The notes under the pieces were generated by a model. That model was not told the origin of the DNA, did no database searches, and saw only the letters and a list, made by a program, of their open reading frames with translations. From the NCBI RefSeq assembly GCF_000341395.1, contig NC_020304.1, positions 750,001 through 782,000 of the forward strand: a stretch of 32,000 bases of DNA, in the 5' to 3' direction. Shown piece by piece: positions 8,158-28,324 of this stretch. The position numbers and the translations under genes were made by a program. Within the stretch, counting starts at the first letter, position 1. Each line of letters begins with the position of its first letter. The stretch is from Desulfocapsa sulfexigens DSM 10523. GTDB taxonomy: Bacteria; Desulfobacterota; Desulfobulbia; Desulfobulbales; Desulfocapsaceae.

Positions 8158-8219
8158 TGGTACGGAGATCGGAGTCGAACCGACACGGGCCAAAGCCCGC
8201 TGGATTTTGAGCCCAGTGC
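8158..8219 (-). repeat. decayed partial copy (3' ~62 nt) of tRNA-Leu(CAA); distal att-type direct repeat of the island
   Basis: It aligns to 24348-24410 with a 37-nt perfect core (8175-8211), 4 mismatches and a 1-nt deletion. The changes break acceptor and T-stem pairing, so it is not a functional tRNA. Confidence 0.85.
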
Positions 8220-8341: not shown

Positions 8342-8398
8342 AACACATTGACTCTCAGTAAATTTAACTGTACGGTCAAAAAAGGAGGCCTTCACACC

Positions 8399-8641
8399 AT
8401 GTCAAAAATTAAATATCCATATCATGTGCGCCTACCCAAATACATTGGCCCGGCAATCAAGGATGCTCGTAAAAAAAAGCAATGGACCCAAAAGGACCTT
8501 GCTGACTACACCGCAACGAGCGTGAAGTTTATAAGTAATATCGAGCAGGGCAAAACCACAGCACAACTTGATAAAGTTTTTGATTTGATACGTACCGTAG
8601 GGCTGAGAGTTTACCTAACCGAAGGAGATATCGACAAATGA
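8399..8641 (+). CDS. hipB: HipB-like XRE-family HTH antitoxin
   Basis: The HTH segment is WTQKDLADYTATSVKFISNIEQGK. GGAGG at 8384-8388 precedes the ATG at 8399, whereas the track ORF begins at an upstream TTG (8348). The stop overlaps the hipA start (ATGA). Confidence 0.8.
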   Translation: MSKIKYPYHVRLPKYIGPAIKDARKKKQWTQKDLADYTATSVKFISNIEQGKTTAQLDKVFDLIRTVGLRVYLTEGDIDK

Positions 8642-9894
8642 GTAATCTCACAGTCTACTGGGATCAACAAATCGTCGGTACAATATCAAGACACCCAAAA
8701 GGCGAAATCACCTTTCAATACGCTGCCGAGTGGCTCAAAAACAGTGGGCGCCAAATATCACTGTCACTGCCATGTCAAGAAGAACGATTCTCCCCTGGAG
8801 TCAGCACAGCTTTTTTTGAAAATCTCTTTCCCGAGAGTGACGCACGAACCATTCTAGCCTTCAACCATCGATTCGACAAAAAAGACACCTTTGCCTTTCT
8901 CGAAAATTTTGGAGAAGATTGCGCTGGTGCCCTCTCCATTATTCCTGAGAGTGGAGATATTCCTCCTCATTCCAGCAAGTATCGATGTATAGACGTTGAG
9001 CTGCAAAAGGCATTGCAGGCCATCGAATCGGATCCTGGTAAGCACAAATTATATCCTGAGTTAGCTAACGCCCGCCTATCAATTGCCGGAGCTCAAGACA
9101 AATTACCAGTGTATTATGAGAAGGGAAGCTTTTCTCTCCCTGAGAATTCGGCATCGCCTACAACGCATATAATAAAACCTGCCAGTCCTTATTTTCATGA
9201 TATCCAGAGAAATGAAGTATTCTGTATGGACCTGGCCCGGCAGGCTGGCCTCTCAGTCCCTCACTCTGAACTATACACGTTTGCAGGCTATGAACTGTTT
9301 CTTATAGAACGTTATGATCGATTCCACTCAGAGAATAAAGTGAAACGGGTACATCAGGAAGATTTCTGTCAGGCAATGGGACTACCGTTTCACAAAAAAT
9401 ATCAGGAACAGGGAGGCCCAGGCTTTTTACACTGCAGAGAACTCGCCGAGGAGCATTTATCAGCCGATATATCAGTGGTAAAACAAAAGCTGACCGCTGT
9501 CATGACTTTCAATTTTCTCATAGGCAACAATGATGCGCATGGTAAAAATTTCTCAATTATTCACAAAGATACTATTACGCTCGCACCGTTCTATGATTTA
9601 GTTTCAACACAGGTTTATCCTAATTTGGATCGCAAACTTGCCATGGCAATAGGTAATACCTACAGGCACGATCGAGTGAACCAAGGTGCTTTTGTCAAAC
9701 TCAGTAAGGATATGAAACTTCGGCCTGAAAAGGTTTTTGAAATTATCACAGCAACTGCTCAAAAAATTGGAAAAATATACGAGAAGGTACTGGCTATACA
9801 TGAAAAGCAGTATGGTAAGGCAGTGATTTATTCGGATCTCCATACTGTGCTGCTCACAAATCTTGCTCGAATACAGGAAATTATGAGGAATTAG
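8638..9894 (+). CDS. hipA: HipA-family serine/threonine kinase toxin
   Basis: 418 aa. The HipA hallmarks are present: SIAGAQDKLPV and the catalytic-loop segment GNNDAHGKNFS. Confidence 0.9.
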   Translation: MSNLTVYWDQQIVGTISRHPKGEITFQYAAEWLKNSGRQISLSLPCQEERFSPGVSTAFFENLFPESDARTILAFNHRFDKKDTFAFLENFGEDCAGALSIIPESGDIPPHSSKYRCIDVELQKALQAIESDPGKHKLYPELANARLSIAGAQDKLPVYYEKGSFSLPENSASPTTHIIKPASPYFHDIQRNEVFCMDLARQAGLSVPHSELYTFAGYELFLIERYDRFHSENKVKRVHQEDFCQAMGLPFHKKYQEQGGPGFLHCRELAEEHLSADISVVKQKLTAVMTFNFLIGNNDAHGKNFSIIHKDTITLAPFYDLVSTQVYPNLDRKLAMAIGNTYRHDRVNQGAFVKLSKDMKLRPEKVFEIITATAQKIGKIYEKVLAIHEKQYGKAVIYSDLHTVLLTNLARIQEIMRN

Positions 9895-10512: not shown

Positions 10513-11631
10513 ATGTCAGCAAAAGTGAAGAATTCTCATATAAATATCAGCAAAGAATTACTTATAGAAAACTATATTTCTGATACAAGGCCATGGATTA
10601 TAGGGTACTCAGGAGGTAAAGATTCAACATTATTATTACAATTGGTTTTTGAAATCCTCTCTGACGATAGGGTTAATAATGAAAAGCCAATTCACATAAT
10701 AACCTCAGATACTGGCGTAGAACCGCCTAACATACTAACGCATGTCAAAGAAAACCTGGCAAATATTCAAACGTTTATCGACAAACAAAACTTACCAATC
10801 AATATCCATCAGGTAGTTCCCTCTTTAGATAACAAATTCTGGGTAAATCTCATTGGGAGAGGCTACCCTTCACCAACTAGATGGTTTCGCTGGTGTACAT
10901 CTAAAATGAAAATTAAGCCAACAAAAGGAATAATAGAGCAGTTGGTTGAACAACACGGTAGCACTATATTGCTACTAGGGACAAGAAAAGATGAGAGTCA
11001 AGCCAGAAAGCGTTCGATAGAAAAACGTGAGTATAGCACTAGAAGACTCAACCCTCATCATGAAATCAAAAACACACTAGTTTTGGCCCCCATTTCTGAC
11101 TGGACAACAGACGAAGTTTGGGAGTACCTGTTCAACGAACTTCCACCCTGGGGAGGGAATCATGATGTTCTTTTTGATCTGTACAAACAAGCAAATAGCG
11201 GTGAATGCCCCTTGGTTGTTGACCTTAACACCCCATCGTGCGGGGGAAGTCGATTCGGTTGCTGGACCTGTACCGTCGTTAAAACAGACAAGTCAATGGA
11301 AAGCTTCATCGAGCAGGGAGCCGTTTGGATGCAACCATTGAATAACTTTAGAAATTGGATTAAAGAGATTAGGGAAGATGAACATCGACGGAACCATTAC
11401 AGAAGAACTGGAGAACTGGGCAACGGCCCGTTCAATTCAACAACAAGACAAGAGATTCTAGAAAATTTACTTGATACTGAATCAAAATTACCCGACAACA
11501 TTGAATTAATTAGTGATGATGAAATTGTTCACATTCAAAAAATATGGACAGAAGAGTTTGATGTAATGAACTCTGCCTTAAAAATTGCCAACAAATTTAA
11601 AAGGCAACCAATGAAAAGAAGAAAAAAATAA
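10513..11631 (+). CDS. DndC/SspD-type PAPS-reductase-fold (PP-loop) DNA sulfur-modification protein
   Basis: 372 aa. It has the PP-loop YSGGKDST, then LIGRGYPSPTRWFRWCTSKMKIKP, and then ECPLVVDLNTPSCGGSRFGCWTCTVVKTDKSM. These are the motifs I associate with DndC. Confidence 0.85.
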   Translation: MSAKVKNSHINISKELLIENYISDTRPWIIGYSGGKDSTLLLQLVFEILSDDRVNNEKPIHIITSDTGVEPPNILTHVKENLANIQTFIDKQNLPINIHQVVPSLDNKFWVNLIGRGYPSPTRWFRWCTSKMKIKPTKGIIEQLVEQHGSTILLLGTRKDESQARKRSIEKREYSTRRLNPHHEIKNTLVLAPISDWTTDEVWEYLFNELPPWGGNHDVLFDLYKQANSGECPLVVDLNTPSCGGSRFGCWTCTVVKTDKSMESFIEQGAVWMQPLNNFRNWIKEIREDEHRRNHYRRTGELGNGPFNSTTRQEILENLLDTESKLPDNIELISDDEIVHIQKIWTEEFDVMNSALKIANKFKRQPMKRRKK

Positions 11632-11822
11632 TGGATAAAAAATATCTAACTAGAAAATTATCTGATCTTTCAAAAGATCACGATGTCCCTGAGTACCTTA
11701 TCCCTCAACTCATACATTTAATGGAGAGATATCCAAATATTGCAATACGAGGTGCGAAGTCTAGTTTAAAAACAGATATTGAGAAAATAATCACTAATGC
11801 AATGAAGGAAGGAAACTTATAG
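11631..11822 (+). CDS. 63-aa protein of unknown function, translationally coupled on both sides
   Basis: Its start overlaps the DndC-like stop (TAATG), and its stop overlaps the GTG start of the next gene. I recognised no motif. Confidence 0.4.
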   Translation: MDKKYLTRKLSDLSKDHDVPEYLIPQLIHLMERYPNIAIRGAKSSLKTDIEKIITNAMKEGNL

Positions 11823-13840
11823 TGCATATCATATCCATAACATTAAAAAATATTTTTTCTTATTATGGGGAAAAGATTTTTGACTTGTCACCCCCAAATA
11901 ATGGCAAAAAAAACATTGTCATTATACGAGGACGAAACAACCAAGGTAAAACAAGTTTTTTAAATAGCATCAAATTACTTTTTGGTGGCGTTTCTGAAGA
12001 TCTATTGCAAAAAGTACCGAGAGGGATAACGACAAAACAATACATCTATGGCGCAAGTGATAGATGGTGGGGAATATTGAATTATCGTGCCAAGGAAAAA
12101 GGAGTAAGTAACTGTTCAATTTCTATTAAATTATATACCGAAAACGGAGAGGCTTTAATAACCAGAAAGTGGTCAAATATTACCAATACTTCTTTCAATG
12201 AAATGGTCATGGTTGATGACCCTATTGAAGGTTATCTTGAAAATGATCAAGCGCAAGAGTATCTAAATCGAATATTACCTATTGAATATCTACCATTTTT
12301 CTTTTTTGACGGTGAAGAAGTACAACATCTTGCAGAAGCAAATACTAATCAAACCATCTCTAAAATGGAGCAATTGTTAAATATCCGGCCCGTTGAGAAT
12401 GTTTTGTCTGCAATAAAATCAGTAAAAGGGTCTTGGAAGAGTCAGAGCATGGACAGACATGCGGTAGCTGACTTGGAGAAAGCAAAGAATAAAAAACAAG
12501 AATTTATATCAGAAATAGCAGGACTAGAACAAGAAAAAGATGATCTCGAAAATGATTTAGCGGAAGAAGAGGAGGCCTTAAAACGAACCGAAAGGATGCT
12601 AGATATTATTGGCGGTCATACAGGTGTTGAAAATAGAGCAATATTAAAAACAGAAGTAAAGCATCTAGAGGAGACTCAAGATGAACTTTTCGCAAAAATA
12701 TCAGATTTTTTTGGTGGTGATGCTTTTCTTATGCTTAACCCTAAATTGATAGAAAAGTCACTTAAAATCATTCAAAAAAACATTCACAACTTCAACCAAC
12801 AACAACTCACTTTACTAGGTACTCTACAAAATCAGTTACCAATATTATTAGAACAGCCACCATATTCATCTCCTCCACTAACGACAAACCAAATTGCTTT
12901 CTATCAGCAACGAATAAAAAAGCAAATTGAAGTATTTCAACAACCAATAAATAGTGAAGAAACTTTTAATCTCGATCCATCCAGAGCTCAAAAACTTTAT
13001 GACACTCTCATAAGATATTCAGACGATCCTGATGCATTTTCTGAGTTAAGAAAGTTAGTATCAAAGGCAAGAAATATTCAAATTGCAATAAATCAAAAAA
13101 ATGATCTTCTAGACAATGCAAAACACCTTGCAGAAGAGGAGAAAAAACATTTTCAAGAGTTAAAAGAACAAGAGTCGATCATCAAAAAGACGTTATTTGA
13201 AATTAATGACAGTATAAGAGATAAAGATAGCCAAATAACTCAAATAGCTTCCAGCTTATCTGAAATAACTCAGAACATTAACCGTCTAGTTGATTCTGTA
13301 AAAGTCGCAGAAGACTATAGAGGTAGATATGACTTAGCAACCCGAACTCAAAATATGCTTGAAAGTTTTAAACATGACTTAAAGAAAGAAGCAAGAGAGC
13401 AACTTGAAATCGAAGTTAATAAGAATCTATCTACAATACTAGACTCCAACACATTAATTAATACAGTAAAAATTAGTGATGAATTCCTAATTACTTACCT
13501 AGATCAAAGGGGTAACTCTATCGGAATGGGTACAATTTCAGCGGGTATGAAACAAATCGCAGCAACTTCTCTTTTATGGGCTTTAAAAACAGTTTCAAAT
13601 AAAGAGTTTCCAGTAATTATAGACACTCCACTAGCTAGAATCGACGCACAACATCAAGCAAACTTACTGGAACGATACTACCCACACGCTAGCAAGCAAG
13701 TGATAATTCTGCCTACTGATTCTGAATTAGATGAATCTAAATCAAAGAAACTTCAAAAACACTGTTATAAAACATTTGAGCTGAAGAATCCCAGTGGTAC
13801 CAATACAGAAATAGTGACATTAGAGGTGCCCAATGGCTGA
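11822..13840 (+). CDS. DndD/SspC-type SMC-like ATPase
   Basis: 672 aa. It has an N-terminal Walker A (GRNNQGKTSF), a long charged coiled-coil middle, and a C-terminal FPVIIDTPLARIDAQHQANLLERYYPHASKQVIILPTDSEL, which matches the DndD C-terminal signature as I recall it. Confidence 0.8.
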   Translation: MHIISITLKNIFSYYGEKIFDLSPPNNGKKNIVIIRGRNNQGKTSFLNSIKLLFGGVSEDLLQKVPRGITTKQYIYGASDRWWGILNYRAKEKGVSNCSISIKLYTENGEALITRKWSNITNTSFNEMVMVDDPIEGYLENDQAQEYLNRILPIEYLPFFFFDGEEVQHLAEANTNQTISKMEQLLNIRPVENVLSAIKSVKGSWKSQSMDRHAVADLEKAKNKKQEFISEIAGLEQEKDDLENDLAEEEEALKRTERMLDIIGGHTGVENRAILKTEVKHLEETQDELFAKISDFFGGDAFLMLNPKLIEKSLKIIQKNIHNFNQQQLTLLGTLQNQLPILLEQPPYSSPPLTTNQIAFYQQRIKKQIEVFQQPINSEETFNLDPSRAQKLYDTLIRYSDDPDAFSELRKLVSKARNIQIAINQKNDLLDNAKHLAEEEKKHFQELKEQESIIKKTLFEINDSIRDKDSQITQIASSLSEITQNINRLVDSVKVAEDYRGRYDLATRTQNMLESFKHDLKKEAREQLEIEVNKNLSTILDSNTLINTVKISDEFLITYLDQRGNSIGMGTISAGMKQIAATSLLWALKTVSNKEFPVIIDTPLARIDAQHQANLLERYYPHASKQVIILPTDSELDESKSKKLQKHCYKTFELKNPSGTNTEIVTLEVPNG

Positions 13841-15314
13841 TATATATACCGACCAAATTGATGAGCAACTAATTTCTGATGTCCTTCATTATGGCTTTAA
13901 AACCAAAACAGCACCAAAATTAAGAGTACTCCGACTTGCGCTAGCAAAATCATTACAGATTACAACTCCCCCTAATTCTGACTTTGATAAAATACCTGAA
14001 AAAGGTTCTGAGTATAGTCTTAAACAAGTTACAGGCCGTGACTCTGAGAATGACCTTGATGATTCAGTTCGAGCTATGCTTTCAATTTATCATGAGGATG
14101 ATTTCTTTAACAAAGAGAAAGATTATCGAAAACATTTACAGCGACACATTAGAAGAGGATTAAAAGAGATAAGAACAAGCTGGGCAAGAGGACACGACTT
14201 TTCAAGCTACTTAGAACATGAACTCTTACCAAACCTGACAATTGATGATGATCTTGAAAGGAATACCTTATCAAACCAAAATCTTATCGATTCGCTAGAG
14301 GAAATTGGAGTCAATGGACGGATCAATGAAAGAGTTGAAGGATCTCGAATTAGTCGCTTCTTTCTCTATTTTGAAAATGCTAATGATTATGATCAATTAA
14401 AAAAAGGTTTAGGAAAATTAGCAATGCTTCTTGGTCTAGGTGACAAAGGAGTACTAATGCAACCCACGAATCAACCAAGAATAATTTCTCTTGATGTTCC
14501 CAGGGAGCAATCTAGTTGGAAAACAATTCAAGCATCATCGTTCTGGGACTGGACAAAAACAGATGAAATAAAGAAGTATGTTCTTCCAATATGGCTTGGA
14601 CAAGATGTTATTGGAGGCAACTACTCATTTGACTTACAGGAAGCACCCCATATTTTAGTGTCAGGAACAACAGGCAGCGGGAAAAGTGTTTGTTTACACA
14701 GTATAATATTGTCCCTACTAGCAACCTTGCCCAAAGGAGACATTGAATTAGCTCTTATTGACCCCAAAAGGGTTGAGTTTGTTAGATACGAGTCCACCTC
14801 CCAATTATATGAAGGAGGGGTTGTCTATTTAGTTGATCAGGCTGCTAATTTATTAGAGGAATTAGTTGATGAAATGGAAAGACGACATCAATTGATGTAT
14901 GAAGCGAATGTAACAAATTTATCAGAAGGGAGGGGTCAAAACAAAATAAACCTTCCATACATCGTTGTAGTAATAGAAGAACTCGCCGATCTATTAATGC
15001 AGTCTAGTGATATTGAAACCCCGTTAGTCAGGTTGGCCCAGAAAGCTCGATCCTGTGGTATTCACTTAGTTTTAGCTACTCAAAGACCGGATTCAACCAT
15101 ACTCACAGGGTTGCTCCGAAGTAATATACCTGGAAGAATTGCTCTTCGAGTACAAAAGCACACGGAATCAAATATTATTTTAGATGAAAAGGGGGCTGAG
15201 GCATTATTAGGAAGGGGAGATATGTTAGTAAAAATACCTCCCGATATTGCCCCCAAACGTGTTCATGGAGCAAAGTTGACGCAAGATGATTTAGAGCAAA
15301 TCAAACATGTTTAG
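13833..15314 (+). CDS. FtsK/SpoIIIE-type ATPase with an N-terminal, possibly DndE-like, domain
   Basis: 493 aa, overlapping the upstream gene by 8 nt. The C-terminal half has Walker A (VSGTTGSGKSV), Walker B (VVVIEELADL) and IHLVLATQRPDSTILTGLLRSNIPGRIALRV. The N-terminal ~120 aa (LRVLRLALAKSLQITTPP...GSEYSLKQVTG...VRAMLSIYH) resembles the DndE pattern from memory only. Confidence 0.7.
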   Translation: MADIYTDQIDEQLISDVLHYGFKTKTAPKLRVLRLALAKSLQITTPPNSDFDKIPEKGSEYSLKQVTGRDSENDLDDSVRAMLSIYHEDDFFNKEKDYRKHLQRHIRRGLKEIRTSWARGHDFSSYLEHELLPNLTIDDDLERNTLSNQNLIDSLEEIGVNGRINERVEGSRISRFFLYFENANDYDQLKKGLGKLAMLLGLGDKGVLMQPTNQPRIISLDVPREQSSWKTIQASSFWDWTKTDEIKKYVLPIWLGQDVIGGNYSFDLQEAPHILVSGTTGSGKSVCLHSIILSLLATLPKGDIELALIDPKRVEFVRYESTSQLYEGGVVYLVDQAANLLEELVDEMERRHQLMYEANVTNLSEGRGQNKINLPYIVVVIEELADLLMQSSDIETPLVRLAQKARSCGIHLVLATQRPDSTILTGLLRSNIPGRIALRVQKHTESNIILDEKGAEALLGRGDMLVKIPPDIAPKRVHGAKLTQDDLEQIKHV

Positions 15315-15326
15315 AGGATCTGTCTT

Positions 15327-16496
15327 ATGGATAGTGTAATAACGATTTATGATTTCAAGCTACTTGCATTAACAATTGATAGAATTGGTCCATTTCAAGA
15401 GAAACAATTTGAAATTGATTTTACTGATAAAAACAACAATCCCTGCAATTTTTATCTTTTTGTTTCTCGTAATGGGTCAGGCAAAACTACTATTTTCGAG
15501 ACCTTAACATCCTTATTAGGATTGTTAGACAACCCTTCTCCAACTGAATTTCACCAAGAAGACTTGGACCTAAATCAAGGGAGGGCTCAACTTGATATTT
15601 GGCTCAGACTCCGATGGCAAGGCAAAGAGCAAGCAATAGTTTTTTCGATCGTCGGAGGAAGAATAGGCGAAGAATTTTCATTCAAAGTTTGGGATAAAGA
15701 GACCTTAGAAGAATACAATGCAGAGAGTTGGCACCGAATCAGCTATATATCCCAAACTTCAGGTTCTATCAAGAAGCCAAGCCCAAGTTCAGAACTGGTT
15801 GAGACTCTACTTGCTGTTATACAAGCAGGAAAAAAGTCAACTCCAAGTGATTTTGGGGATAGCCAAATAGCTCTTCCTACAGTTTTATACTTTTCTGCGT
15901 ATCGAGATATTCCTGATATTACTGAAGAACCACATACAAAACCAAACTACTCTGCTAGAAGTATTACCCAACCTAAACACTGGTCTTATAATGCAAGTCA
16001 TCGGTTTGAACCGCACGACCAAAATTGGCATGGTTCTCTTGATAATCTACTAGTCTGGCTTAAATGGCTTAGTGATGGAAGATTTAAGAAAGCATGCGAT
16101 TTGATCAACTCCAAAGTGTTTGCCGGAACTGATAAATATCTAAAAGATGTCAGAAGAGACCCCCCGGAAGCTATTGTCTCATGCTCTACTGGAACTCACC
16201 GTCTTGACCGTTTGAGCAGTGGTGAAAAAAGCCTTGTTCACTTATTCCTCAGGCTTGGTTCTCATATGACCCAGCATACCATAGTAATAATAGATGAACT
16301 AGAGGCCCATTTGCATCCACGATGGCAGCATGCTCTATTTAAATCTCTTAAAGAATTCGCTTCAAGTAATAGCGGAATAACAATTTTATCCAGCACTCAC
16401 TCCACCGATATTCTACACACTTTTTCTGAAAGCATAGATATTCCAGAGAATGGGCTTATCAAGGGTGGCACAATCATTGATAAAGGTTTAAAATAA
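15327..16496 (+). CDS. ABC/AAA_21-type ATPase (AriA / OLD-ATPase-like)
   Basis: 389 aa. It has Walker A (SRNGSGKTT), an ABC-signature-like LSSGEKSL, and Walker B plus H-loop (IVIIDELEAHLHP). Confidence 0.75.
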   Translation: MDSVITIYDFKLLALTIDRIGPFQEKQFEIDFTDKNNNPCNFYLFVSRNGSGKTTIFETLTSLLGLLDNPSPTEFHQEDLDLNQGRAQLDIWLRLRWQGKEQAIVFSIVGGRIGEEFSFKVWDKETLEEYNAESWHRISYISQTSGSIKKPSPSSELVETLLAVIQAGKKSTPSDFGDSQIALPTVLYFSAYRDIPDITEEPHTKPNYSARSITQPKHWSYNASHRFEPHDQNWHGSLDNLLVWLKWLSDGRFKKACDLINSKVFAGTDKYLKDVRRDPPEAIVSCSTGTHRLDRLSSGEKSLVHLFLRLGSHMTQHTIVIIDELEAHLHPRWQHALFKSLKEFASSNSGITILSSTHSTDILHTFSESIDIPENGLIKGGTIIDKGLK

Positions 16497-16499
16497 CAG

Positions 16500-17372
16500 A
16501 TGGTTAGCTTCAAAGACATTCCTAATGATTTAGAAATCTCTTCACTATATGAGGGGGGCATCAAGGTCCTTGTTGAATCGAATGATGATTTAGTCATTTT
16601 AAGAGATAAATGGTTCTTCAATCATAAAGATAAATTGTGTTTTGAGAGTGTTAGTGATGAAGAAGGCAGCAGCGGAGGTTGCCAGGAAGTAATAGCTAAA
16701 GTAAAACGCTACAGACGAGCCCACACCACTGCTTTTGGTATTGTTGACAGGGATGTTCTTCTCAGTGATGAAGATCATAGAGATGATTTATGGTGGGAAA
16801 CTGATGATGAGAAATTTAGAGCATCTACGCCCTATGGTAATCAAATTTTTATATTAAGTCGCTGGGAAATTGAAAACTACTTACTCAAACCACTTGCAAT
16901 TAAAGCATTTGTTAAAGATAAGTTATGTTCTCCTGCGGCACCTCAACTAGAGACATCAGACTTTCTAGGGCAGGCTGATGATTTAATTGTAATTACTAGC
17001 CTGAGTACTATTGCCTCAGCTAAGTCTAATTCAGCACCTAAACCAAAGTGGGGGCTAGACAAGTCTGGGGCGGAATTAAAAAACTTAATTGCAACGGAAC
17101 TCAACGTGTCTATAGATGAAGTTGAGGAGCATTTTGAAAAAATCAAAACCTTTGCAACCACCCATAATGACGATGAGTGGGATGGATTAACGAGGTTATT
17201 AGATGGAAAACGTATCTTCCACAGACTTAACATCTACCTAAAAGAAAAATTTACTCTTAGAACTCTTGATTTACTTGAGGAAAAAGGTGTACTTGCCGGG
17301 TATGTGAATTCATATGATCAAATAGATAAGGAATTAAAACAAATGGTTGATGGTTTTCTTGCATCCCATTAA
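16500..17372 (+). CDS. DUF4435/TOPRIM-like protein (AriB / OLD-nuclease-like)
   Basis: 290 aa, starting 3 nt after the ATPase stop. VLVESNDD (TOPRIM Glu), FGIVDRDVLL (DxD) and WEIENYLL are the motifs I associate with DUF4435 partners of AAA_21 ATPases. Confidence 0.6.
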   Translation: MVSFKDIPNDLEISSLYEGGIKVLVESNDDLVILRDKWFFNHKDKLCFESVSDEEGSSGGCQEVIAKVKRYRRAHTTAFGIVDRDVLLSDEDHRDDLWWETDDEKFRASTPYGNQIFILSRWEIENYLLKPLAIKAFVKDKLCSPAAPQLETSDFLGQADDLIVITSLSTIASAKSNSAPKPKWGLDKSGAELKNLIATELNVSIDEVEEHFEKIKTFATTHNDDEWDGLTRLLDGKRIFHRLNIYLKEKFTLRTLDLLEEKGVLAGYVNSYDQIDKELKQMVDGFLASH

Positions 17373-18135
17373 CCAAATGTATGCTCCATATCATAGTAAA
17401 TTGAACACCAATACACCTAGACAAGTAACACCTGTAACAACTGTAAAACAATAATATACACACAATTAAAGTATATAATTTCAGTTAATTACAAAAGGAT
17501 ACTTCAAACTATCTTCTGAAATAATCAGTTGTTCGACTAGCTAATAATTCCTTTTCAATAGACCTTGTTTGTCTTGCGCTCAAATTGGCCTTCCTTTGGA
17601 ATCTCCTAAGCTTTTTACCCATTTTTATTGCTTCCTTACTATTATCCAGCCAGGCTCTTAACAATCCATAACTCGTTATCATTCTAGACAACAATTTGCT
17701 TTTCTCTTTACTCCTGTAAAAACTGAACATGATTTGTTCCAGCTTTTTTTGATCAATTTCAGGAATCTTCAAGTATCTATTTTGTAACATCAGGAATACT
17801 TCTTTCGAGGAAGAGATTTCGGATATATTTTCGATTTTGAGAACTCTTTTTATTGTGGCTTTTCCATGCAATGAGAATTCTATCCTGCATACCTTCCCTG
17901 CATCAGCGTCAGTCTCTATCTCTACAACCTTGCTATCCCCAACATATTCTCTCTGATAATTGTCGCTCCTTCTACCTTTCTCCTTTGCCTGCGTATTCCA
18001 GTGAATCCGGCCACCCAGTCCACTTGATTCCGGCCAGTAATTCCACGGCAAAGCGGCCACCCAGTCCAGAGGATTCCGGCCAGGGTGTCGGAGCGTAGCG
18101 ACGCGAATATTTCCTTCTTACTCTGTGTGTTGCTC

Positions 18136-18873
18136 TCACGTCAAGCGTGCTTTCTTTTTTCTCATAGATTCTCCTTTCAGTTTGATTTTGTGAGCGGCAT
18201 GTACCAGACGGTCAAGAATGGCGTCGGCTAAAGTCGGATCTCCGATCCGCTCATGCCAGTGCTCTACCGGTAATTGACTGGTTACCAAGGTAGATTTGAG
18301 GCCGTGTCTGTCTTCCAGTATTTCTAGTAAATCATGGCGTTGCTCCTGGTTGAGTGTGGCCAGTCCATAGTCATCAAGTACCAATAGATCTGTTTTTGAA
18401 TAGACAGTCAGTAACTTCAGATAACGGCCATCCCCCTTGGCAAGAGCCAGATCTTCAAAGAGTTTACTCAGACGGAGATAGAGAGCACTATAGCCTTCTC
18501 TGCATGCCTTTTGGGCCAAGGCACAGGCAAGATAGGATTTGCCGACTCCAGTGGGGCCGGTAATAAGCAGATTGGTATGTTCCTTTATCCAGTTGCAGTC
18601 AGCCAGCCTGGTTACCAGTGACCTATCCAGACCACGCGGATGACGGAAGTCTACATCCTCGATTGAGCCATCCTGCCGCAGCTTTGCCTTTCTGAGTCTG
18701 GTCTGAAGTTTTCTGGTTTCCCTGACCGCCTGCTCGCGGTCAAGTAACAGACCGAGGCGTTCTTCGAAACCCAGGTTATCTGCAGTGTCCATGTCCATCT
18801 GTTCCTGGAGTGCTGCGGCCATGCCGGTGAATCGAAGAGTTGTGAGTTTTTCAAGTGTTGGATGCAGAAGCAT
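18136..18873 (-). CDS. istB: IS21 helper ATPase IstB
   Basis: 245 aa. It has Walker A (GPTGVGKSY) and Walker B (LLVLDD), giving the typical IstB/DnaC-like layout. Confidence 0.9.
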   Translation of the reverse strand: MLLHPTLEKLTTLRFTGMAAALQEQMDMDTADNLGFEERLGLLLDREQAVRETRKLQTRLRKAKLRQDGSIEDVDFRHPRGLDRSLVTRLADCNWIKEHTNLLITGPTGVGKSYLACALAQKACREGYSALYLRLSKLFEDLALAKGDGRYLKLLTVYSKTDLLVLDDYGLATLNQEQRHDLLEILEDRHGLKSTLVTSQLPVEHWHERIGDPTLADAILDRLVHAAHKIKLKGESMRKKKARLT

Positions 18874-18893
18874 TTTATCGTTTCCTTTTTGTT

Positions 18894-20447
18894 TTAGTGG
18901 GTTGAGGGAGAATAATACTGAGAGCCACGGATATTTGCGTGATTAACCGGCTTGTCCTCTGTAGCCGGCTTCGGTAGTGGCTTCTGATCAAGGCCGCTTT
19001 TGAGTATGGATTCCACTGAGCGGTAAGAAAGGGCGTTGATATGCAGGGCCCGATGGCATGCTGCCTCAAGGCGTGAATCTCCATAGGCTTTGCCAAGACG
19101 GAGAATGCCCAGCAAAGTGCGATAGGCCTGTTGTGGGTGAGCTCTTTTTACAAGAAGCGTCTCTGTGAGGCAGAGTGTCTCCGGCCCGACCTTGGCAGCC
19201 CAGCGCTTGAACCTGTCCGGATTCCACTCCATGTACTTTCGGTGGTTGACAGGCATATGCTCTTTGACGGTAGTGTGGTGCCCTCGTTGATTCTCCCGGA
19301 TGTGACTGGCCACCCGTTTACCACGAAAGTAACACTCAACCGTGCTTTTGGTATAGCGCACCTCAATCTGTTTTTTGACCAGGTTATATGGAACGGAATA
19401 GTAATGTCCCTCGACCTCCACATGATAGTCGATATGTACAGTGGCCTTTTTCCAGTAGGATAATTCATAAGGGCTGGCTGGAAGTTGTTTCAGGGCAGGT
19501 TTGTCCAGTTCTTCAAAGCGACTTTTACGGCTGCCGGATAACTTCTTGAAAGGCTTGTTGTTCAGTTGCTCAAGGAGTTTGCCTATTTCGCGATTGAGAT
19601 CGTCAATGTTGAAGAAAGTATGTTTACGGAGTTTTGCCAGAATCCAGCGTTCCACCAGCAATACACCGGCCTCAGCCTTGGCCTTGTCCCTTGGTTTTCT
19701 AACCCTTGCAGGCAGCACCACGGTTTGATAATGTCGGGCCAGATCATGATAAGTGGGATTAAGGTCAGGTTCGTAACGGCAGGCTTTTGTGACGCCACTT
19801 TTCAGGTTATCTGGAACGACAACTTCCGGAACCCCACCCAGGAAAGCAAATGTACGGACATGTGAACCGATCCAATCCTCAATCTTCTGGCTGGGAGTGG
19901 CCTCAGCATAGGTGTAGTTGCTGGCACCAAGGACCGCAACAAAGACCTGAGCCTTTGTGATTTCTCCGGTGTGTTGGTCAACGACATCGACGGTTTGGCC
20001 TGCGTAGTCGACAAACAGTTTCTCACCGGCTCGGTGTTCATGGCGCATGACCAGATCAAGCTTGCCGGCCCAATCCCGGTAACTATGGCAGAACCAGCTG
20101 TACTGGTAGCCGTCAGGATGCTGCTCTTTGTATTCCTGCCACAGCAGGTTCAGGGTAACCCCTCGTTTGGATTGGAGCTCTTTGTGGATCTCAGAGAAAT
20201 CTGGAATTAGCCGGCTTGTCCCCGGTGGAGGCGGTGGAGGGAAAAGGGTTTGTTCAAGGCTGCTGTCGCTTAGGTCGTCAGGAAGGGGCCAACCCAGATC
20301 TGCTCTTTTGGTTCGTTGTAAATAGTCACTTACCGTGCTGCTGCCAATACCGCAGCTACGGGAAATTTCACGGTTACTGTGCCCAAGTTCATACTTGAGT
20401 CGTAGTACCTCTCTAATTTTTCGCATAGATAACCTCTTCTTCGGCAT
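18894..20447 (-). CDS. istA: IS21 transposase IstA
   Basis: It has an N-terminal HTH (MRKIREVLRLKYELGHSNREISRSCGIGSSTV) and a DDE core. The start is placed at the ATG at 20447 behind AAGGAGGG; the track ORF starts 8 codons upstream. Confidence 0.9.
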   Translation of the reverse strand: MPKKRLSMRKIREVLRLKYELGHSNREISRSCGIGSSTVSDYLQRTKRADLGWPLPDDLSDSSLEQTLFPPPPPPGTSRLIPDFSEIHKELQSKRGVTLNLLWQEYKEQHPDGYQYSWFCHSYRDWAGKLDLVMRHEHRAGEKLFVDYAGQTVDVVDQHTGEITKAQVFVAVLGASNYTYAEATPSQKIEDWIGSHVRTFAFLGGVPEVVVPDNLKSGVTKACRYEPDLNPTYHDLARHYQTVVLPARVRKPRDKAKAEAGVLLVERWILAKLRKHTFFNIDDLNREIGKLLEQLNNKPFKKLSGSRKSRFEELDKPALKQLPASPYELSYWKKATVHIDYHVEVEGHYYSVPYNLVKKQIEVRYTKSTVECYFRGKRVASHIRENQRGHHTTVKEHMPVNHRKYMEWNPDRFKRWAAKVGPETLCLTETLLVKRAHPQQAYRTLLGILRLGKAYGDSRLEAACHRALHINALSYRSVESILKSGLDQKPLPKPATEDKPVNHANIRGSQYYSPSTH

Positions 20448-20985
20448 GAGCCCTCCTTGAATTTTATTCAAAAAGGCACTCTCTACCAGTTGGTTCTATG
20501 CGTCGCTACTCCCTATTTGGGGTGACCGGATTCCTCTGGAATCACTGGCCGGAATGAAATGGAATCGGTGGCCGGAATCACGTGGAATGAGTGGCCGGTT
20601 TACTCTGGAATCGGTGGCCGGAATCGTCTGGAATATGCATTTGCCCGATAAAAAGTAGTATTGATTTGAAATGTCCTATCTCCAGACCACTTCCTGTAAT
20701 AAGTATTCATAAACCACTCAAGATACTCTTTAGCTTCCTCAGAACTCTGAAAAACTACTTCCATTGTGATATCTATCCGTGTGAGTGTGCCAAAATTCCT
20801 CGATTGTATGATCTCCATAAATTCATCCGTTGCTCCACTCACATCAAGCTTTGAATTATAACTGTGATATTTCCCCGTATTGCTTGCTGGGTAAATCAAA
20901 CTCGGAGTTCTTTCACTTCTACAAAGAGGTGGCTCAGTTTGTTTGAACAGTATTCTGTCATTTTTAAGTGGAGCCTCTGCCTAAA

Positions 20986-21816
20986 TTAAGCTGCCTTTTC
21001 AATTGGTGGCAACATTATGTTGTAGGCCTCATCTGGAGTTCTTTTTTCCAATCCGGAATGTGGTCTTGAGCGGTTATACCAATCAAAATACTGCATGATA
21101 GACCTTCGAGCCTCATTTACTGTATCATAAGCATGCAAATAAACACGTTCGTATTTCACTGATCTCCATAGTCTTTCAACGAATACATTGTCTCGCCAAG
21201 CCCCACGTCCATCCATGCTGATCTTGCAGCCCTTTTCGTGCACTACCTCAATAAACTCTTGTGCGGTAAACTGACTTCCCTGGTCGGTGTTGACAATCTC
21301 TGGGATGCCATGATGAACAAAGGCTTCTTTCAGCACATCAACTGCATGGCAGGCCTCGAGGGTAATAGAAAGTTTTGAGGCCAACACTTTCCGGCTTGCC
21401 CAGTCAACAACAGCCGTCAGATACACAAATCCTTTGGCCATGGGAATATAAGTCGTATCCAGAGCCCAGACCTGGTTGGACTGATCGATACTCTTTCCTC
21501 TCAATAGATACGGATAGATTTTGTGACCTGGATGTTTTTTACTCGTTCCCGGTTTCCTATATAACGCTTCAACTCCCATGCGTTTCATCAGGGTTCCAAC
21601 ATGTTTGCGCCCGACAGAAACACCATCTCGGTTCAGTTGATCACGGAGCATCCTTGCCCCCATAAACGGGTGCTCCAAATGGAGTTCATCAATTTTCCGC
21701 ATCAGCACCAAGTCGTTTTCGTTAACTGGTTTGGGTTTGTAATACACGCTACCACGACTGATCTCAACGACTTGAGCTTGTCGTGTAATCGAAAGAGTAT
21801 GGGCTGGATCTATCAT
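20986..21816 (-). CDS. IS3 transposase OrfB (DDE integrase core)
   Basis: 276 aa with rve-type motifs ([18 protein letters not shown], the RSRPHSGL tail). The frame is open upstream as far as the slippery site. Confidence 0.9.
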
Positions 21817-22115
21817 CGCTTTACGCTCAGCAACCCCACTTTGGTGAGCGCACCTTCTAAAAAATCGTTTTCCAGCGTTAGCTGGCCTATTTTCGCATGT
21901 AGGGTCTTTATATCAACTGCTGGCTCTTTTGAAGTACCTTTGGCAAATACAGAGTCTGCCTCTTCTGTCAGTTGCCTTTTCCAAGCGGTGATCTGGTTGG
22001 GATGCACTTCAAACCGTTGCGCCAGTTCTGCTAGTGTCTTGTCTCCAGCCATCGCTGCAAGGGCCACTTTCGCCTTGAATGCGGCTGAGTGTTTTCTTCT
22101 CGTTCCTTTTGCCAT
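21813..22115 (-). CDS. IS3 transposase OrfA (HTH)
   Basis: 100 aa with a typical IS3 OrfA N-terminus ([16 protein letters not shown]...[22 protein letters not shown]) and a leucine-zipper-like end. Confidence 0.9.
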
Positions 22116-22469
22116 TTTCTGCTCCTTGTTTAAATCTTTTCATGGGAATTATTGGTAGCAGATTTTCCACTTAACAGCTTGTTCAAATTTTCTGGACCAC
22201 CTCTCAATGCTTCCTGAGTTCATCTACAGGAAGGTAGTCAATAGCGTCAGCAACGCTCATGTGAGAATTTATTGTGATTGTGTCAAAATAATAAAAAATC
22301 GCCTTAGGCGTGAATTTCTTCATTTTAGGTACCTATGTATATTTTTCTAAAACTTGTTAAATACAGAGCGATTTAGCCAGTCAATAATGTATAAATTTAC
22401 TAACTGGCTTAACCTTCTTTGCTAAGAAAGCATAGTAAGCTATCCATCCAATATTATAGGATTAGTTAC

Positions 22470-22947: not shown

Positions 22948-24156
22948 TTAACCTGGCTCGTTTTCCATTTTTTGTAATAAATCAGCCCACCACTGCATCA
23001 AATCTCGTCTCTGCTCAATATAATGGCTTCGATGATATGCAGCCCTGACTTTGTTACGCTGCTCATGTGCTAGCGCTTTTTCAATCACATCACCATCAAA
23101 ACCAGACTCATTAGCTATAGTTGAAAACACGGCTCTAAACCCATGCACGGTTGACCGAGAGTGATACCCCATGCGGTACATTGCATAAAGCATAGTATTT
23201 TCTGAGAGAGGTTTATTGCTGTCCCTGATGCCTGGAAATATATACCCATCACGGCCATATAAATTCCCAACCCTTTCCAAAATTGCCCTGGCTTGATTTG
23301 ATAATGGGACATTATGCGGGCTATTTACTTTCATTCGTTCTGCTGGAATACGCCACATTCTTTCCTCTATATCAATCTCATCCCACCTTGCAAATCTTGT
23401 TTCACCACTTCTAGCAGCTGTAAGTATCGTAAATTGTAGTGCAAGCTTAGTATTGATGTGTATATCTGCTGTTTGCATTTTCTTTAAAAACTCTGGCATT
23501 TCATCAATAGATAAGGCTGCTTGGTGTATTACTTTTCTTGTCTTTATAACGCCTTTCATATCTGCGGCTGGATTGTAAGTAGCTCTACCCGTTTGTATAG
23601 CATAACGGAAAACAGCACTCATCCTCTGCAACACCTTTCGAGCAATCTCAAGCGATCCTCTCTTCTCTATGCTTCTGAGAATTTTCAATACAGTTGGAGG
23701 CTGAATTGAATCCACTGGAAAATCCCCTACTACTGGAAATGCATCATGCTCTAAAGTTGCCCTCACTGCATTTGCGTGTTCAGATTTCCATTTACCTTTT
23801 TGATTATCTATCCATTCAAGAGCCACTGCCCTAAAACAATTTTCATCAACTGCTTTTAGTTCTAGTTCTCTATCTACAGTTTCCTGCTTTGCTTTTTTTC
23901 GTTCTTTTGCAGGGTTTTTACCAAGTTTTACCAACTCTCTTGCTTCAGCTCTTGCCTCTCTCGCCTCTTTAAGGCTCATTTTCGGGTACTCACCAAGAAC
24001 AAAAGTTGATTCTCTGCCCAGTATCTTAAAGCGATATCTCCACGTTTTTCCACCAGATTTTGCAATATGAAACCAGAGACCATGCCCATCGGATATCTTG
24101 AAAGGAAGTTTTTCTGGTTTTAAGTTGCGTACTTGTATAGCTGTAAGCTTTGACAT
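22948..24156 (-). CDS. int: P4-type tyrosine integrase
   Basis: The start is placed at MSKLTAIQVRNLK (ATG at 24156), because the longer track ORF runs into the tRNA. It has a DUF4102-type arm domain (GLWFHIAKSGGKTWRYRFK) and a catalytic C-terminus (HGFRAVFST...ALAH...AAYHRSHY). Confidence 0.9.
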   Translation of the reverse strand: MSKLTAIQVRNLKPEKLPFKISDGHGLWFHIAKSGGKTWRYRFKILGRESTFVLGEYPKMSLKEAREARAEARELVKLGKNPAKERKKAKQETVDRELELKAVDENCFRAVALEWIDNQKGKWKSEHANAVRATLEHDAFPVVGDFPVDSIQPPTVLKILRSIEKRGSLEIARKVLQRMSAVFRYAIQTGRATYNPAADMKGVIKTRKVIHQAALSIDEMPEFLKKMQTADIHINTKLALQFTILTAARSGETRFARWDEIDIEERMWRIPAERMKVNSPHNVPLSNQARAILERVGNLYGRDGYIFPGIRDSNKPLSENTMLYAMYRMGYHSRSTVHGFRAVFSTIANESGFDGDVIEKALAHEQRNKVRAAYHRSHYIEQRRDLMQWWADLLQKMENEPG

Positions 24157-24347
24157 TGACGTCACCATGAAAAGTGGGTAAAAGAAAGGAGGGTATTCGG
24201 TTCCTCTGCTGCCATACCCACGGATATACCCACTTTTCACGACAGATGTCAACGGATAAATTTGGACTACCCTGGAAACAAAAAACCCGCAAACCATTTC
24301 TGGATGCGGGTTAAACGGAACGCTTAGGACGTTCTCGGAATATGTAC

Positions 24348-24434
24348 TGGTGCCGGAGGTCGGAATCGAACCGACACGGGCCAAAGCCCGCTGGATTTTG
24401 AGTCCAGTGCGTCTACCAGTTTCACCACTCCGGC
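24348..24434 (-). tRNA. tRNA-Leu (anticodon CAA), class II, encoded CCA
   Basis: The reverse complement is GCCGGAGTGGTGAAACTGGTAGACGCACTGGACTCAAAATCCAGCGGGCTTTGGCCCGTGTCGGTTCGATTCCGACCTCCGGCACCA. It has a 7-bp acceptor stem, an anticodon stem CTGGA/TCCAG with loop CTCAAAA, a long variable arm and a T-arm GTCGG-TTCGATT-CCGAC. Confidence 0.9.
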
Positions 24435-24645: not shown

Positions 24646-25758
24646 ATGAGAGCTACAATCACAGCTAAAACACTACAATCATTGCAACCTAAGGACAAGC
24701 CATATTTCATCCGGTCTACTAATGGCTTCGCAGTAAAGATAAATCCAAAAGGAAGTATTAAGTACATTATAGAAACGAAACTCAATTGTCGTACAGTCCG
24801 TAGAACTATAGGGACTTATCCAGCCATGCCATTAAAAGATGCTAAGGAAGCTGGAGCCAAACTATTACAGGAGATCTTAATAGAACCAAATCAAAGAAAG
24901 ACATCGACATCCCTTAGGATGTTGTTCGACAGTTACACTTCCACTCTGAACCTCAAGGAAACAACACTCAAGGATTATCAGACTGTTATTCCATACTACC
25001 TCTCAGACTGGATGAACAAGAAGGTCACCTCCATCTCCAAAAGTATGGTAGAGAAACGGTTCGTTACCATCAGAGATAAGGGATGGCAGGGAGGAATTCC
25101 AACACACAGTCAAGCGAACAAGGTCATGCGTATCCTCTCAGCACTAATGAACTACGCAATGGCTGACGATATCATCCAGCAGAATCCTGTGGATGTTCTT
25201 AAGCAGAAGAGAGTTGATAGGAGCACTATTAAGAGAAGTAGCTACCTGACAGCACCAGAGGCCAGAGAAGTAACTGAGAGCCTTTCAGATCATCCTGTGG
25301 AGCTTGCAATTGCCATGATGCTATACACTGGACTGAGGAAGAATGAGGCTCTCAGCATACGATGGGAGAATGTCACTAAGGATCTGATAACGATTAAGGA
25401 TACCAAGAATCACAGGGAGCACCTGATCCCAATCACTGAGAGAATACAGAAGATCTTGGATAGAATACCAAGAAGCTCTTCACCATTCTTATTTCCATCC
25501 CCAGTTGACAAGCAAAAGAACATTAGAGACGTTAGACCAACACTGAAGAGGATTGAGAAGAATACAGGAATTAACTTTAAATGTCATGATCTCAGGCGTA
25601 CCTTCGCCACTCGAGCGTCTGAGGTAGGAATAGATTTCCTCATGATCAAGAGGATGCTAAATCATAAGGTATCAGATATAACTGCTCAGTACATCCAGTG
25701 GAACAGCAAGGAGAATCTCCAGAAGATGAAGGAAGCTCTTGAACGTGTTGTGTACTAA
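24646..25758 (+). CDS. second tyrosine integrase (P4-like arm domain)
   Basis: 370 aa. The catalytic region is HDLRRTFATRASEVGIDFLMIKRMLNH...ITAQYI. The N-terminal arm-type domain is LQPKDKPYFIRSTNGFAVKINPKGSIKY. Confidence 0.85.
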   Translation: MRATITAKTLQSLQPKDKPYFIRSTNGFAVKINPKGSIKYIIETKLNCRTVRRTIGTYPAMPLKDAKEAGAKLLQEILIEPNQRKTSTSLRMLFDSYTSTLNLKETTLKDYQTVIPYYLSDWMNKKVTSISKSMVEKRFVTIRDKGWQGGIPTHSQANKVMRILSALMNYAMADDIIQQNPVDVLKQKRVDRSTIKRSSYLTAPEAREVTESLSDHPVELAIAMMLYTGLRKNEALSIRWENVTKDLITIKDTKNHREHLIPITERIQKILDRIPRSSSPFLFPSPVDKQKNIRDVRPTLKRIEKNTGINFKCHDLRRTFATRASEVGIDFLMIKRMLNHKVSDITAQYIQWNSKENLQKMKEALERVVY

Positions 25759-26238: not shown

Positions 26239-27194
26239 GATTAGTATGGCAACAGTAGCAGCAGAGAAGGAAGCAAGATGATCACAATCGTAGATGCAGT
26301 AATGGGGACGGGCAAGAGCACTTGGGCAATCAATGAAGTGAACAATAATCCTGCGAAGAAGTATATTATACTAACTCCATATCTCGATGAAGTTGACAGA
26401 TACAAAGCAGATACATCAAGACCTGATGTTGTAGCGCTGGATGACGATATTACTGACACGAAGACGGCTGGATTCAGAGACGCAATCAAACAAGGCAAGA
26501 GCGTTATAACTACACACAAGCTCTTCTCTCATCTATACCTAGAAGAATTCCCTCAGATCCAACAAGGTGAGTATGAACTAATTATTGATGAGACCATTAC
26601 ACTCGTAGAAGAAGAGGTAATCAATAAAGATGACTTCAATATGCTGTTGAGCACTAAGAAGATCTGGACAGAACCAACGAAGATTGATGGTATGTTTATC
26701 GTTCACCCTGAAGCTCATGGAGTTGATTACCATGGCAGTCACCGTGCCTTTATGGATGCAGCTAGGGGAGAGCACGTCTTCAGGATCAATAATACAACTG
26801 TTGTCTTCGTGGTGCCTCCTGAGAAGCTCACTGTCTTCAAGAATGTTCATATAATGACTTATTTCTTTGAAGGATCTGAAACTCACTGTTGGCTCCAATT
26901 ACATAAGATTGACTTTAACCACAAGGAACTTGAGAGAGATAATGGAGGACACAAGCTACTTCCTCACAGTCTTAACTACTCAGGAGCTAAATACAAACCA
27001 CTGATAACAATCTTTGATGATAAGAAGCTGAATGCAATTGGAGAGAAGGGGAGGAAACTGAAGGAACCATTAGCTCAAGGCTGGTTTAAACAGAAAGGGA
27101 AGGACAGGAAGAAGGAGATTAAGCAACTTAAGAAGAGGTGGCTCAGTTTGTTTGAACAGTATTCTGTCATTTTTAAGTGGAGCCTCTGCCTAAA

Positions 27195-28025: not shown

Positions 28026-28324
28026 CGCTTTACGCTCAGCAACCCCACTTTGGTGAGCGCACCTTCTAAAAAATCGTTTTCCAGCGTTAGCTGGCCTATT
28101 TTCGCATGTAGGGTCTTTATATCAACTGCTGGCTCTTTTGAAGTACCTTTGGCAAATACAGAGTCTGCCTCTTCTGTCAGTTGCCTTTTCCAAGCGGTGA
28201 TCTGGTTGGGATGCACTTCAAACCGTTGCGCCAGTTCTGCTAGTGTCTTGTCTCCAGCCATCGCTGCAAGGGCCACTTTCGCCTTGAATGCGGCTGAGTG
28301 TTTTCTTCTCGTTCCTTTTGCCAT
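28022..28324 (-). CDS. IS3 transposase OrfA (copy 2)
   Basis: The translation is identical to 21813-22115. Confidence 0.9.

Follow-up and report, generated by a model that had tools for sequence, protein, structure and literature searches.

A Dnd-type gene set with a DndE-FtsK fusion and an ABC ATPase-TOPRIM pair form one conserved cassette, probably an anti-phage system, in Desulfocapsa sulfexigens

The canonical DndABCDE-DndFGH system combines a modification arm with a nuclease arm. Most Dnd modification loci are found without DndFGH, and what restricts invaders in these loci is an open question (Rakesh, Aravind & Krishnan 2024 NAR, PMC10853773). The same study, citing Krishnan et al. 2020, already described a subset of Dnd loci with a DndE-HerA/FtsK protein and a small protein, and the nucleases it reports from Dnd neighbourhoods are of the HKD, HNH, REase, URI, HEPN and PIN types, TOPRIM not being listed (PMC10853773). 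Pairs of an ABC ATPase and a TOPRIM nuclease have been described as PARIS, in which release of the nuclease of the AriA/AriB pair is induced by a trigger (PMC12839542), and, as OLD-type ABC ATPases with TOPRIM proteins, they serve as backup effectors in BREX (PMC12839542) and Hma (bioRxiv 10.1101/2024.01.29.577857) loci. Here we describe a cassette in which DndC, DndD and a DndE-FtsK fusion are joined to such a pair. It lies in a stretch of 32,000 nt of Desulfocapsa sulfexigens DSM 10523 (contig NC_020304.1, positions 750,001 to 782,000; hereafter the window) and is probably an anti-phage system.

The cassette spans positions 10513 to 17372 of the window (~6.9 kb) and consists of six open reading frames (ORFs), which amount to five functional parts, as DndC is encoded here in two pieces. 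Its genes, and the two domains encoded by gene 4, are the following:

10513-11631, + strand: gene 1, catalytic part of DndC (372 aa; TIGR03183)
11631-11822, + strand: gene 2, small protein Sp-DndD (63 aa; PF20306)
11822-13840, + strand: gene 3, DndD (TIGR03185)
13833-15314, + strand: gene 4, DndE-FtsK fusion (493 aa; PF08870 and PF01580)
~13899-14177, + strand: DNA-binding DndE domain at the N-terminus of gene 4 (PF08870)
~14577-15242, + strand: FtsK/HerA-type translocase ATPase at the C-terminus of gene 4 (PF01580)
15327-16496, + strand: gene 5, OLD/PtuA/AriA-type ABC ATPase of compact size (389 aa; AAA_15 and AAA_21)
16500-17372, + strand: gene 6, TOPRIM/DUF4435 nuclease (290 aa) whose two domains fold like AriB

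In the window, consecutive genes are joined by junctions of -1, -1, -8, +12 and +3 nt, and gene 6 is an exact match to UWK_00652. Six coupled genes on one strand, with these coordinates and junctions, had been proposed in an earlier reading of the window from its letters and ORFs (hereafter the sequence-only reading), and the ORF list agrees with it. The same reading had seen DndC and DndD signatures in genes 1 and 3, had taken gene 4 for an FtsK-type ATPase with a possibly DndE-like N-terminus, and genes 5 and 6 for an ABC/AAA_21 ATPase and a DUF4435/TOPRIM protein. Profile searches for DndC, DndD, DndE, FtsK, AAA_21/AAA_15 and DUF4435 all scored above the curated cutoffs and thereby uphold these assignments. 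A scan of the sequence for promoters and terminators yielded fewer promoter-like sites than shuffled sequence. The arrangement of the operon goes beyond chance, since dozens of unrelated contigs share the same order of genes.

To see whether genes 1-4 and genes 5-6 occur together elsewhere, 80 metagenome loci, two genome loci (L001 and L002) and two loci obtained by exact protein look-up were sampled. The metagenome loci were retrieved with an alignment of only the N-terminal DndE and linker region of gene 4, and a scan of genome contigs with an alignment of full-length gene 4 was dominated by cellular FtsK proteins, with L001 and L002 being the useful hits. Co-occurrence was counted by tblastn, and many of the contigs are near-duplicates of each other. 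The DndE-FtsK fusion belongs to a large family of homologues of ~500 aa. In each of the 64 loci with at least 2.3 kb of sequence downstream of the DndE-FtsK gene, homologues of genes 5 and 6 follow this gene directly and on the same strand (64/64). On the other side, all 58 loci with enough upstream sequence contain DndD and all but one of them DndC (57/58), and the complete cassette is present in 39 non-redundant loci, the median junctions across loci being -1, +2 and +4 nt. The homologues are 42-60% (gene 4), 37-60% (gene 5) and 23-51% (gene 6) identical to the proteins of the window, and across loci the identity values of gene 4 correlate with those of gene 5 (r = 0.77) and gene 6 (r = 0.76).

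Hosts of the cassette are found among Desulfobacterota, Gamma- and Betaproteobacteria, Magnetococcia and Acidobacteriota; a search of E. coli genomes with the whole cassette gave no match. In Methylomonas sp. LL1, Sulfuritalea, Magnetococcales and Desulfosarcina it is located directly between unrelated housekeeping genes. The cassette is self-contained, and the 113 ORFs that flank the 39 non-redundant loci include each Pfam family three times at most. Since the flanks differ from locus to locus, while the linkage is fixed and the genes diverge in step, these data strongly support that the cassette is a single conserved unit, which moves and evolves as a block, and not a pair of neighbours. The sequence-only reading had left room for genes 1-4 and genes 5-6 being independent of each other elsewhere; the presence of genes 5-6 behind gene 4 in 64 of 64 loci strongly favours one system.

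Gene 1 encodes a PP-loop ATP pyrophosphatase, i.e., a sulfurtransferase of the PAPS-reductase fold, without the usual C-terminal tail. It scores 394 bits against the DndC model TIGR03183 (cutoff 290), of whose 447 positions it covers 7-383, and 433 bits against the PADLOC DndC model. Among 36 family members, conservation reaches 95% or more for its PP-loop (S33-G-G-K-D-S38) as well as for five cysteines (C128, C232, C243, C250 and C253). The missing tail appears to be provided by gene 2, which matches the Pfam family PF20306 (Sp-DndD) with 49 bits (cutoff 27). This Pfam entry presumably goes back to the work of Krishnan et al. 2020. A hidden Markov model (HMM) of the small proteins matches the C-terminus (~residues 375-440) of 40 out of 40 long (~440-aa) DndC proteins from sister loci, e.g., L164:2948-4282, and joining genes 1 and 2 raises the TIGR03183 score to 401 bits with coverage of positions 7-444 of 447. 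Because its HMM matches the C-termini of long DndCs and because it completes the coverage of the DndC model, gene 2 is, as judged by these profile matches, the split-off C-terminal tail of DndC and no additional component of the cassette. The split lies at the 1-nt overlap of the two genes and is lineage-specific. In loci without a DndC catalytic domain the small protein stays beside DndD, and since it persists there after loss of the catalytic domain, it is probably a module docking DndC onto DndD.

Gene 3 matches the DndD model TIGR03185 over its full length with 278 bits (cutoff 246). Across 49 homologues the Walker A motif (G37...G42-K43-T44-S45) is conserved, as are D601 and the residues S573, G575 and Q578 of the signature motif. 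A PADLOC model labelled 'PbeC' (PDLC02719) also matches gene 3 over its full length, with 1567 bits. PbeABCD does resemble the cassette in pairing a DndD-like ABC ATPase with DndE. However, the CxC motif at the coiled-coil apex, i.e., the zinc hook, is absent from the gene 3 sequence, and the cassette has neither the HKD-helicase PbeA nor PbeB; no HKD or SF2 helicase gene is found in the cassette or its flanks. Since gene 3 scores above the cutoff of the DndD equivalog model and is devoid of a CxC motif, the 'PbeC' label is regarded as a naming artefact and an identity with PbeABCD, for which PbeA is missing as well, was rejected.

The N-terminus of gene 4 matches DndE (PF08870; residues 23-115, 29.1 bits, cutoff 25), and residues 249-419 match FtsK_SpoIIIE (PF01580; 148 bits). 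In line with this, a standalone DndE of 146 aa encoded at locus L166 is 45% identical to residues 2-132 of gene 4. The PADLOC model of SspH matches the FtsK part as well, through its C-terminal motor (189 bits). In 21 homologues the Walker motifs of the FtsK part, A (G278-T-T-G-S-G-K284) and B (E382, E383, D386), do not vary. Additionally, the FtsK domain matches PADLOC mad8 (101 bits), and gene 5 weakly matches PADLOC mad3 and NCBIfam MAD3, a possible architectural parallel to the methylation-associated MADS system.

Gene 5 is recognized by AAA_15 (61 bits) and AAA_21 (51 bits). No variation among 39 homologues is seen in its Walker A motif (N49, G50, G52, K53, T54), in the signature motif (S297-K301) or at Q88, D323-E324 and H358. 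The AlphaFold2 (AF2) model of the protein, with a predicted local distance difference test score (pLDDT) of 89, finds its best fold matches in PtuA of the retrons Ec83, Ec78 and Eco7 (TM-score ~0.5) and of Septu, followed by Rad50, and AriA is not among the top 50 of this fold search. PADLOC profiles of PtuA and AriA match with 68 and 57 bits, respectively, and a profile search of the PDB retrieves AriA at E = 3e-11, the match covering only the C-terminal third. With a PtuA-like fold gene 5 recalls Septu (PtuA/PtuB), yet where Septu has the HNH nuclease PtuB, gene 5 is partnered by a TOPRIM protein.

This partner, gene 6, matches DUF4435 marginally (28.4 bits, cutoff 27) and PADLOC AriB with 37 bits. 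E26, D30, G80 and D83-R84-D85 as well as the motif W122-E123-x-E125-x-Y127-L128 (WExENYLL) are invariant in 44 homologues with a mean identity of 36%. For its AF2 model (pLDDT 92) the sole PDB neighbours at a probability of 1.0 are the AriB chains 8ux9_A and 8v46_D (TM-score 0.47, 13% identity), whereas the sequence profile of the family gave nothing significant against the PDB, AriB included. The family is small, distinct and mostly Dnd-linked; of 1.84 billion representatives searched, it takes up 435 clusters at 50% identity (E <= 1e-3). As in PARIS, the pair consists of a split ABC ATPase and a DUF4435/TOPRIM protein on two genes, with the E and DxD motifs of TOPRIM conserved. PARIS is an autonomous two-gene system which responds to anti-restriction proteins such as Ocr by cutting tRNA. 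In contrast to it, gene 5 is shorter than AriA (389 vs. 464 aa) and structurally nearer to PtuA, gene 6 is related to AriB at the level given above, and the pair does not stand alone but is embedded in larger loci. The separation of ABC and TOPRIM on two ORFs, 3 nt apart in the window, holds for all related loci and sets the pair apart from class 1/2 OLD nucleases and Gabija GajA, in which both are part of one polypeptide. Taken over the whole cassette, the catalytic residues of DndC, DndD, FtsK, ABC ATPase and TOPRIM are conserved across families which are 25-60% identical.

More distant relatives of gene 6 (29-36% identical) show to which partners the pair is bound. Eight of them are on informative contigs, seven beside a DndD/DndE core; two further distant relatives were left out because their contigs were too short for context. 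Full cassettes are present at L163, L164, L171, L173 and L174. Another relative is a reduced form from Thiomargarita / Thiotrichaceae, represented by two loci (L166:2520-7276 and L167:409-5165) which have the order sp-DndD-ABC-TOPRIM-standalone DndE, so that the ABC-TOPRIM pair is interleaved between DndD and DndE, and their contigs contain neither a DndC catalytic domain nor an FtsK domain. At L170:48-1603 an N-terminal DndC fragment (residues 13-133) is followed by a 322-aa HNH_2 ORF, the small-protein tail and the remaining cassette, which means either that the writer was replaced by a nuclease or that a mobile HNH element was inserted. The eighth relative, L172:4783-8861 (GCA_974333775.1, contig CDCMNY010000405.1), belongs to a type III CRISPR-Cas locus with Cas10, RAMPs and Csx19. 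It encodes a 1065-aa RAMP-ABC fusion, whose ABC part is 35% identical to gene 5 over the full length, and 20 nt further a TOPRIM protein 32% identical to gene 6. A stand-alone ABC-TOPRIM pair was never seen among the sampled loci. As read from these gene neighbourhoods, the pair goes with the DndD/DndE core and not with sulfur chemistry as such, because variants without DndC retain it. Since the same pair is present in a type III CRISPR locus, it looks like a portable effector that other surveillance systems can capture.

A different kind of variation is seen at L119:5811-8315, where an insertion of ~2.5 kb with a 490-aa ORF on the minus strand separates DndC from an N-terminally truncated DndD. 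It is probably an insertion sequence (IS) element that inactivates this copy.

Taken as one mobile cassette, the genes would combine a phosphorothioate writer, an FtsK motor and an obligate ABC-TOPRIM effector which is triggered by unmarked DNA or by disturbance, a reading which we consider fairly probable. DndC (gene 1 with its tail, gene 2), docked onto DndD via the tail, would write the phosphorothioate mark on host DNA, its partners being DndD (gene 3) and, within gene 4, the DndE domain. The sulfur would be supplied by a housekeeping cysteine desulfurase of the IscS type encoded elsewhere. IscS is known to substitute for DndA in E. coli B7A and Salmonella. Because DndE is fused to a translocase for double-stranded DNA of the FtsK type, the DndD/DndE scanning complex might be motorised and thus processive. 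By analogy to PARIS and OLD, the ABC ATPase (gene 5) would hold the TOPRIM nuclease (gene 6) in check, and the nuclease would be freed or activated when the scanner meets invader DNA without the host mark, or when the scanner itself is disturbed. The expected outcome is cleavage of nucleic acid, either DNA or tRNA, by which the invader would be blocked.

Several observations weigh against this reading. Literature searches met neither phosphorothioate for this type of cassette nor an experimental study nor a named system. Neither the cassette nor the rest of the window encodes a cysteine desulfurase, and such a gene is no recurrent neighbour of the cassette at the 39 loci, these being the regions covered. 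The ABC-TOPRIM pair is retained at L166 and L167, without DndC and FtsK, as well as at L170, where DndC is interrupted by the HNH ORF. For this reason it is somewhat doubtful that the effector needs the phosphorothioate mark, and the pair may do without it. AriB, the closest solved relative of gene 6, cuts tRNA upon sensing a phage protein and does not cut unmodified DNA; moreover, the fold match of gene 6 to AriB is modest and its sequence profile misses AriB, and gene 5 is nearer to PtuA than to AriA. Finally, restriction partners of Dnd systems are often decoupled from them, so that an obligate linkage would be unusual (PMC10853773). Of the proposal made by the sequence-only reading, namely a phosphorothioate-type module using an ATPase-TOPRIM pair as its effector, the union of both halves in one unit is thus borne out by the fixed linkage, whereas a role keyed to phosphorothioate is plausible but put in some doubt by the retention of the pair without DndC.

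Part of this evidence fits a pair that ignores phosphorothioate. In such a case the cassette would still be one unit, but the pair would act as a PARIS-like guard, which senses phage anti-restriction proteins or damage to the Dnd-FtsK complex, releases the TOPRIM nuclease to cut host tRNA and aborts the infection, while the writer would serve a separate role, be it with an unlinked restriction partner or in an epigenetic or redox function. AriB as the only structural neighbour of gene 6, the matches of the PADLOC AriA and AriB models to genes 5 and 6, the backup effectors of BREX and Hma loci and the persistence of the pair both in variants without DndC and in the type III CRISPR locus all point in this direction. 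However, backup modules elsewhere are facultative, which does not agree with the 64/64 linkage and co-divergence observed here, no other restriction component recurs near the cassette, so that the writer would be left without an effector, and in sequence genes 5 and 6 are only weakly related to AriA and AriB. On balance we regard this alternative as rather unlikely, though it deserves more weight than any other rival explanation. Somewhat less doubtful, but still tentative, is the notion that the pair is a trigger-released nuclease cartridge which serves unrelated surveillance machines, in most loci the DndD/DndE-FtsK scanner and in at least one a type III CRISPR RAMP protein, and which replaces DndFGH in this cassette as the long-sought restriction arm of a minimal Dnd system, where it would be licensed by the phosphorothioate status read out by the translocating complex. 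If true, this would amount to a new class of phosphorothioate-dependent defence of less than 7 kb, uniting the logic of restriction-modification with a PARIS-like release of the effector.

The strict linkage to the writer genes could also mean that the pair serves the modification chemistry itself, with TOPRIM providing a transient nick for sulfur insertion in the way SspB does in the Ssp system. Nicked DNA is a proposed intermediate of phosphorothioation, DndE binds nicked DNA, and SspB is the nickase of the Ssp pathway, all of which would suit such a role. Yet, canonical DndCDE writes phosphorothioate without a TOPRIM protein, the pair persists in the absence of DndC and in the CRISPR locus, and the characterized ABC-TOPRIM pairs (OLD, Gabija and PARIS) are all defence nucleases, which makes a nickase function improbable. 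We assign even less credence to the assumption that the DndC-like enzyme installs another modification of backbone or base, or is non-functional. It could be derived from the lack of a dedicated sulfur donor in the cassette and from the split of DndC in the Desulfocapsa lineage, but DndC exceeds the cutoff of its equivalog model by a wide margin, conservation includes the PP-loop and each of the five cysteines, and the split is restricted to this lineage, with the two pieces jointly covering the whole model. Just as improbable is that an orphan Dnd module and a stand-alone, PARIS-like abortive-infection pair happen to be independent neighbours. Automated tools probably call DndC/DndD and AriA/AriB, and defence genes cluster on islands such as the one present here, a tRNA island with HipBA and IS elements. 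Against this stand the 64/64 co-occurrence in fixed order with tight or overlapping junctions, the correlated divergence of the genes, the insertion as a block between housekeeping genes of unrelated genomes, the interleaving of the pair between DndD and DndE at L166, and the small, mostly Dnd-linked family of gene 6. The interpretation as two adjacent systems was therefore rejected as being contradicted by the co-occurrence data.

Compared to the canonical DndABCDE-DndFGH system, the cassette has DndC, DndD and DndE above their cutoffs and an FtsK/HerA motor as in DndH. It differs in the lack of DndA, DndB and DndFGH, in a nuclease arm made of ABC ATPase and TOPRIM, and in a motor that is fused to DndE on the writer side instead of to a restriction protein. 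The sequence-only reading had already noted the absence of a cysteine desulfurase, DndB, the SspB nickase and the known restriction partners, and accordingly no DndA, DndB, SspB, DndFGH, SspE or other Ssp or Pbe partner was detected in the 32-kb window. With BREX/BR and Hma loci the cassette shares an ABC-TOPRIM pair embedded in a modification-based defence locus (PMC12839542; bioRxiv 10.1101/2024.01.29.577857), but the backup modules of those loci are facultative and interchangeable, whereas the pair described here is fixed and co-diverges with its neighbours. Another close system is the DndE-HerA/FtsK subset, which likewise has a DndE-FtsK/HerA fusion adjoining a DndD-type ABC ATPase, Sp-DndD and DndC, and the FtsK domain of gene 4 is related to the DndH/SspH motors ('clade-3' in PMC10853773). 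As this subset and its small protein were noted earlier (PMC10853773), the statement of the sequence-only reading that the combination is undescribed is only partly right. What holds of it concerns the coupling of the ABC-TOPRIM pair to Dnd: a pair with the DndE-FtsK subset is not mentioned in the text and one supplement of PMC10853773, and the coupling is absent from the literature searched, with a substantial chance that the neighbourhood figure of Krishnan et al. 2020 already draws all the genes.

For Dnd loci without DndFGH the cassette offers a compact and testable candidate answer to the question of how invaders are restricted. It is widespread and experimentally tractable, as the 6.9-kb unit can be cloned as a whole and single changes of the residues named above would allow the writer, motor and nuclease arms to be uncoupled from one another. 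It also bridges phosphorothioate epigenetics and ABC-TOPRIM effectors of the OLD/PARIS type, two fields mostly considered separately, and its relative in the CRISPR locus points to the effector pair being a reusable module. Annotation tools probably split the cassette into an incomplete 'Dnd/Pbe' and a 'PARIS' system, with DndD mislabelled as PbeC.

The cassette is part of an integrative island of 16.2 kb, which is defined by the following features:

24348-24434, - strand: tRNA-Leu(caa), integration site of the island (ARAGORN)
22948-24384, - strand: P4-type integrase ORF adjoining the tRNA (Phage_integrase, Arm-DNA-bind_3, Phage_int_M)
8175-8211, no strand: direct repeat resembling an attachment (att) site at the left end of the island, an exact 37-nt copy of tRNA-Leu positions 24366-24402

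The limits of the island follow from the 37-nt copy of the tRNA at its far end, and together with the tRNA and the adjoining integrase this repeat confirms the earlier suggestion of a tRNA-borne island. The G+C content (GC) is 36.7% in the cassette, 40.8% in the island and 45.0% in the left flank, in agreement with the operon having been described as AT-rich. The left flank contains ppx and genes for a methyl-accepting chemotaxis protein (MCP), a glycosyltransferase and a nitrilase-like protein. Besides the cassette, the island comprises HipBA, a 183-aa ORF, IS21 and an IS3-like element, and no other PADLOC defence genes were found in the 32-kb window. The toxin-antitoxin pair of a HipB-like helix-turn-helix gene and a HipA kinase gene (8348-9894) is located at the left edge of the island, directly upstream of the cassette. 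On the other side, the 183-aa ORF (17509-18060, - strand), which has no match in Pfam or PADLOC, lies between the cassette and IS21 (istA/istB; 18136-20471). The IS3-like element, with ORFs of 276 and 100 aa, is present in two identical copies of 1281 nt, one within the island (20924-22204) and one beyond the tRNA (27133-28413). A second integrase gene (24646-25758, + strand) is located on the opposite side of the tRNA, which suggests the presence of tandem islands at one tRNA.

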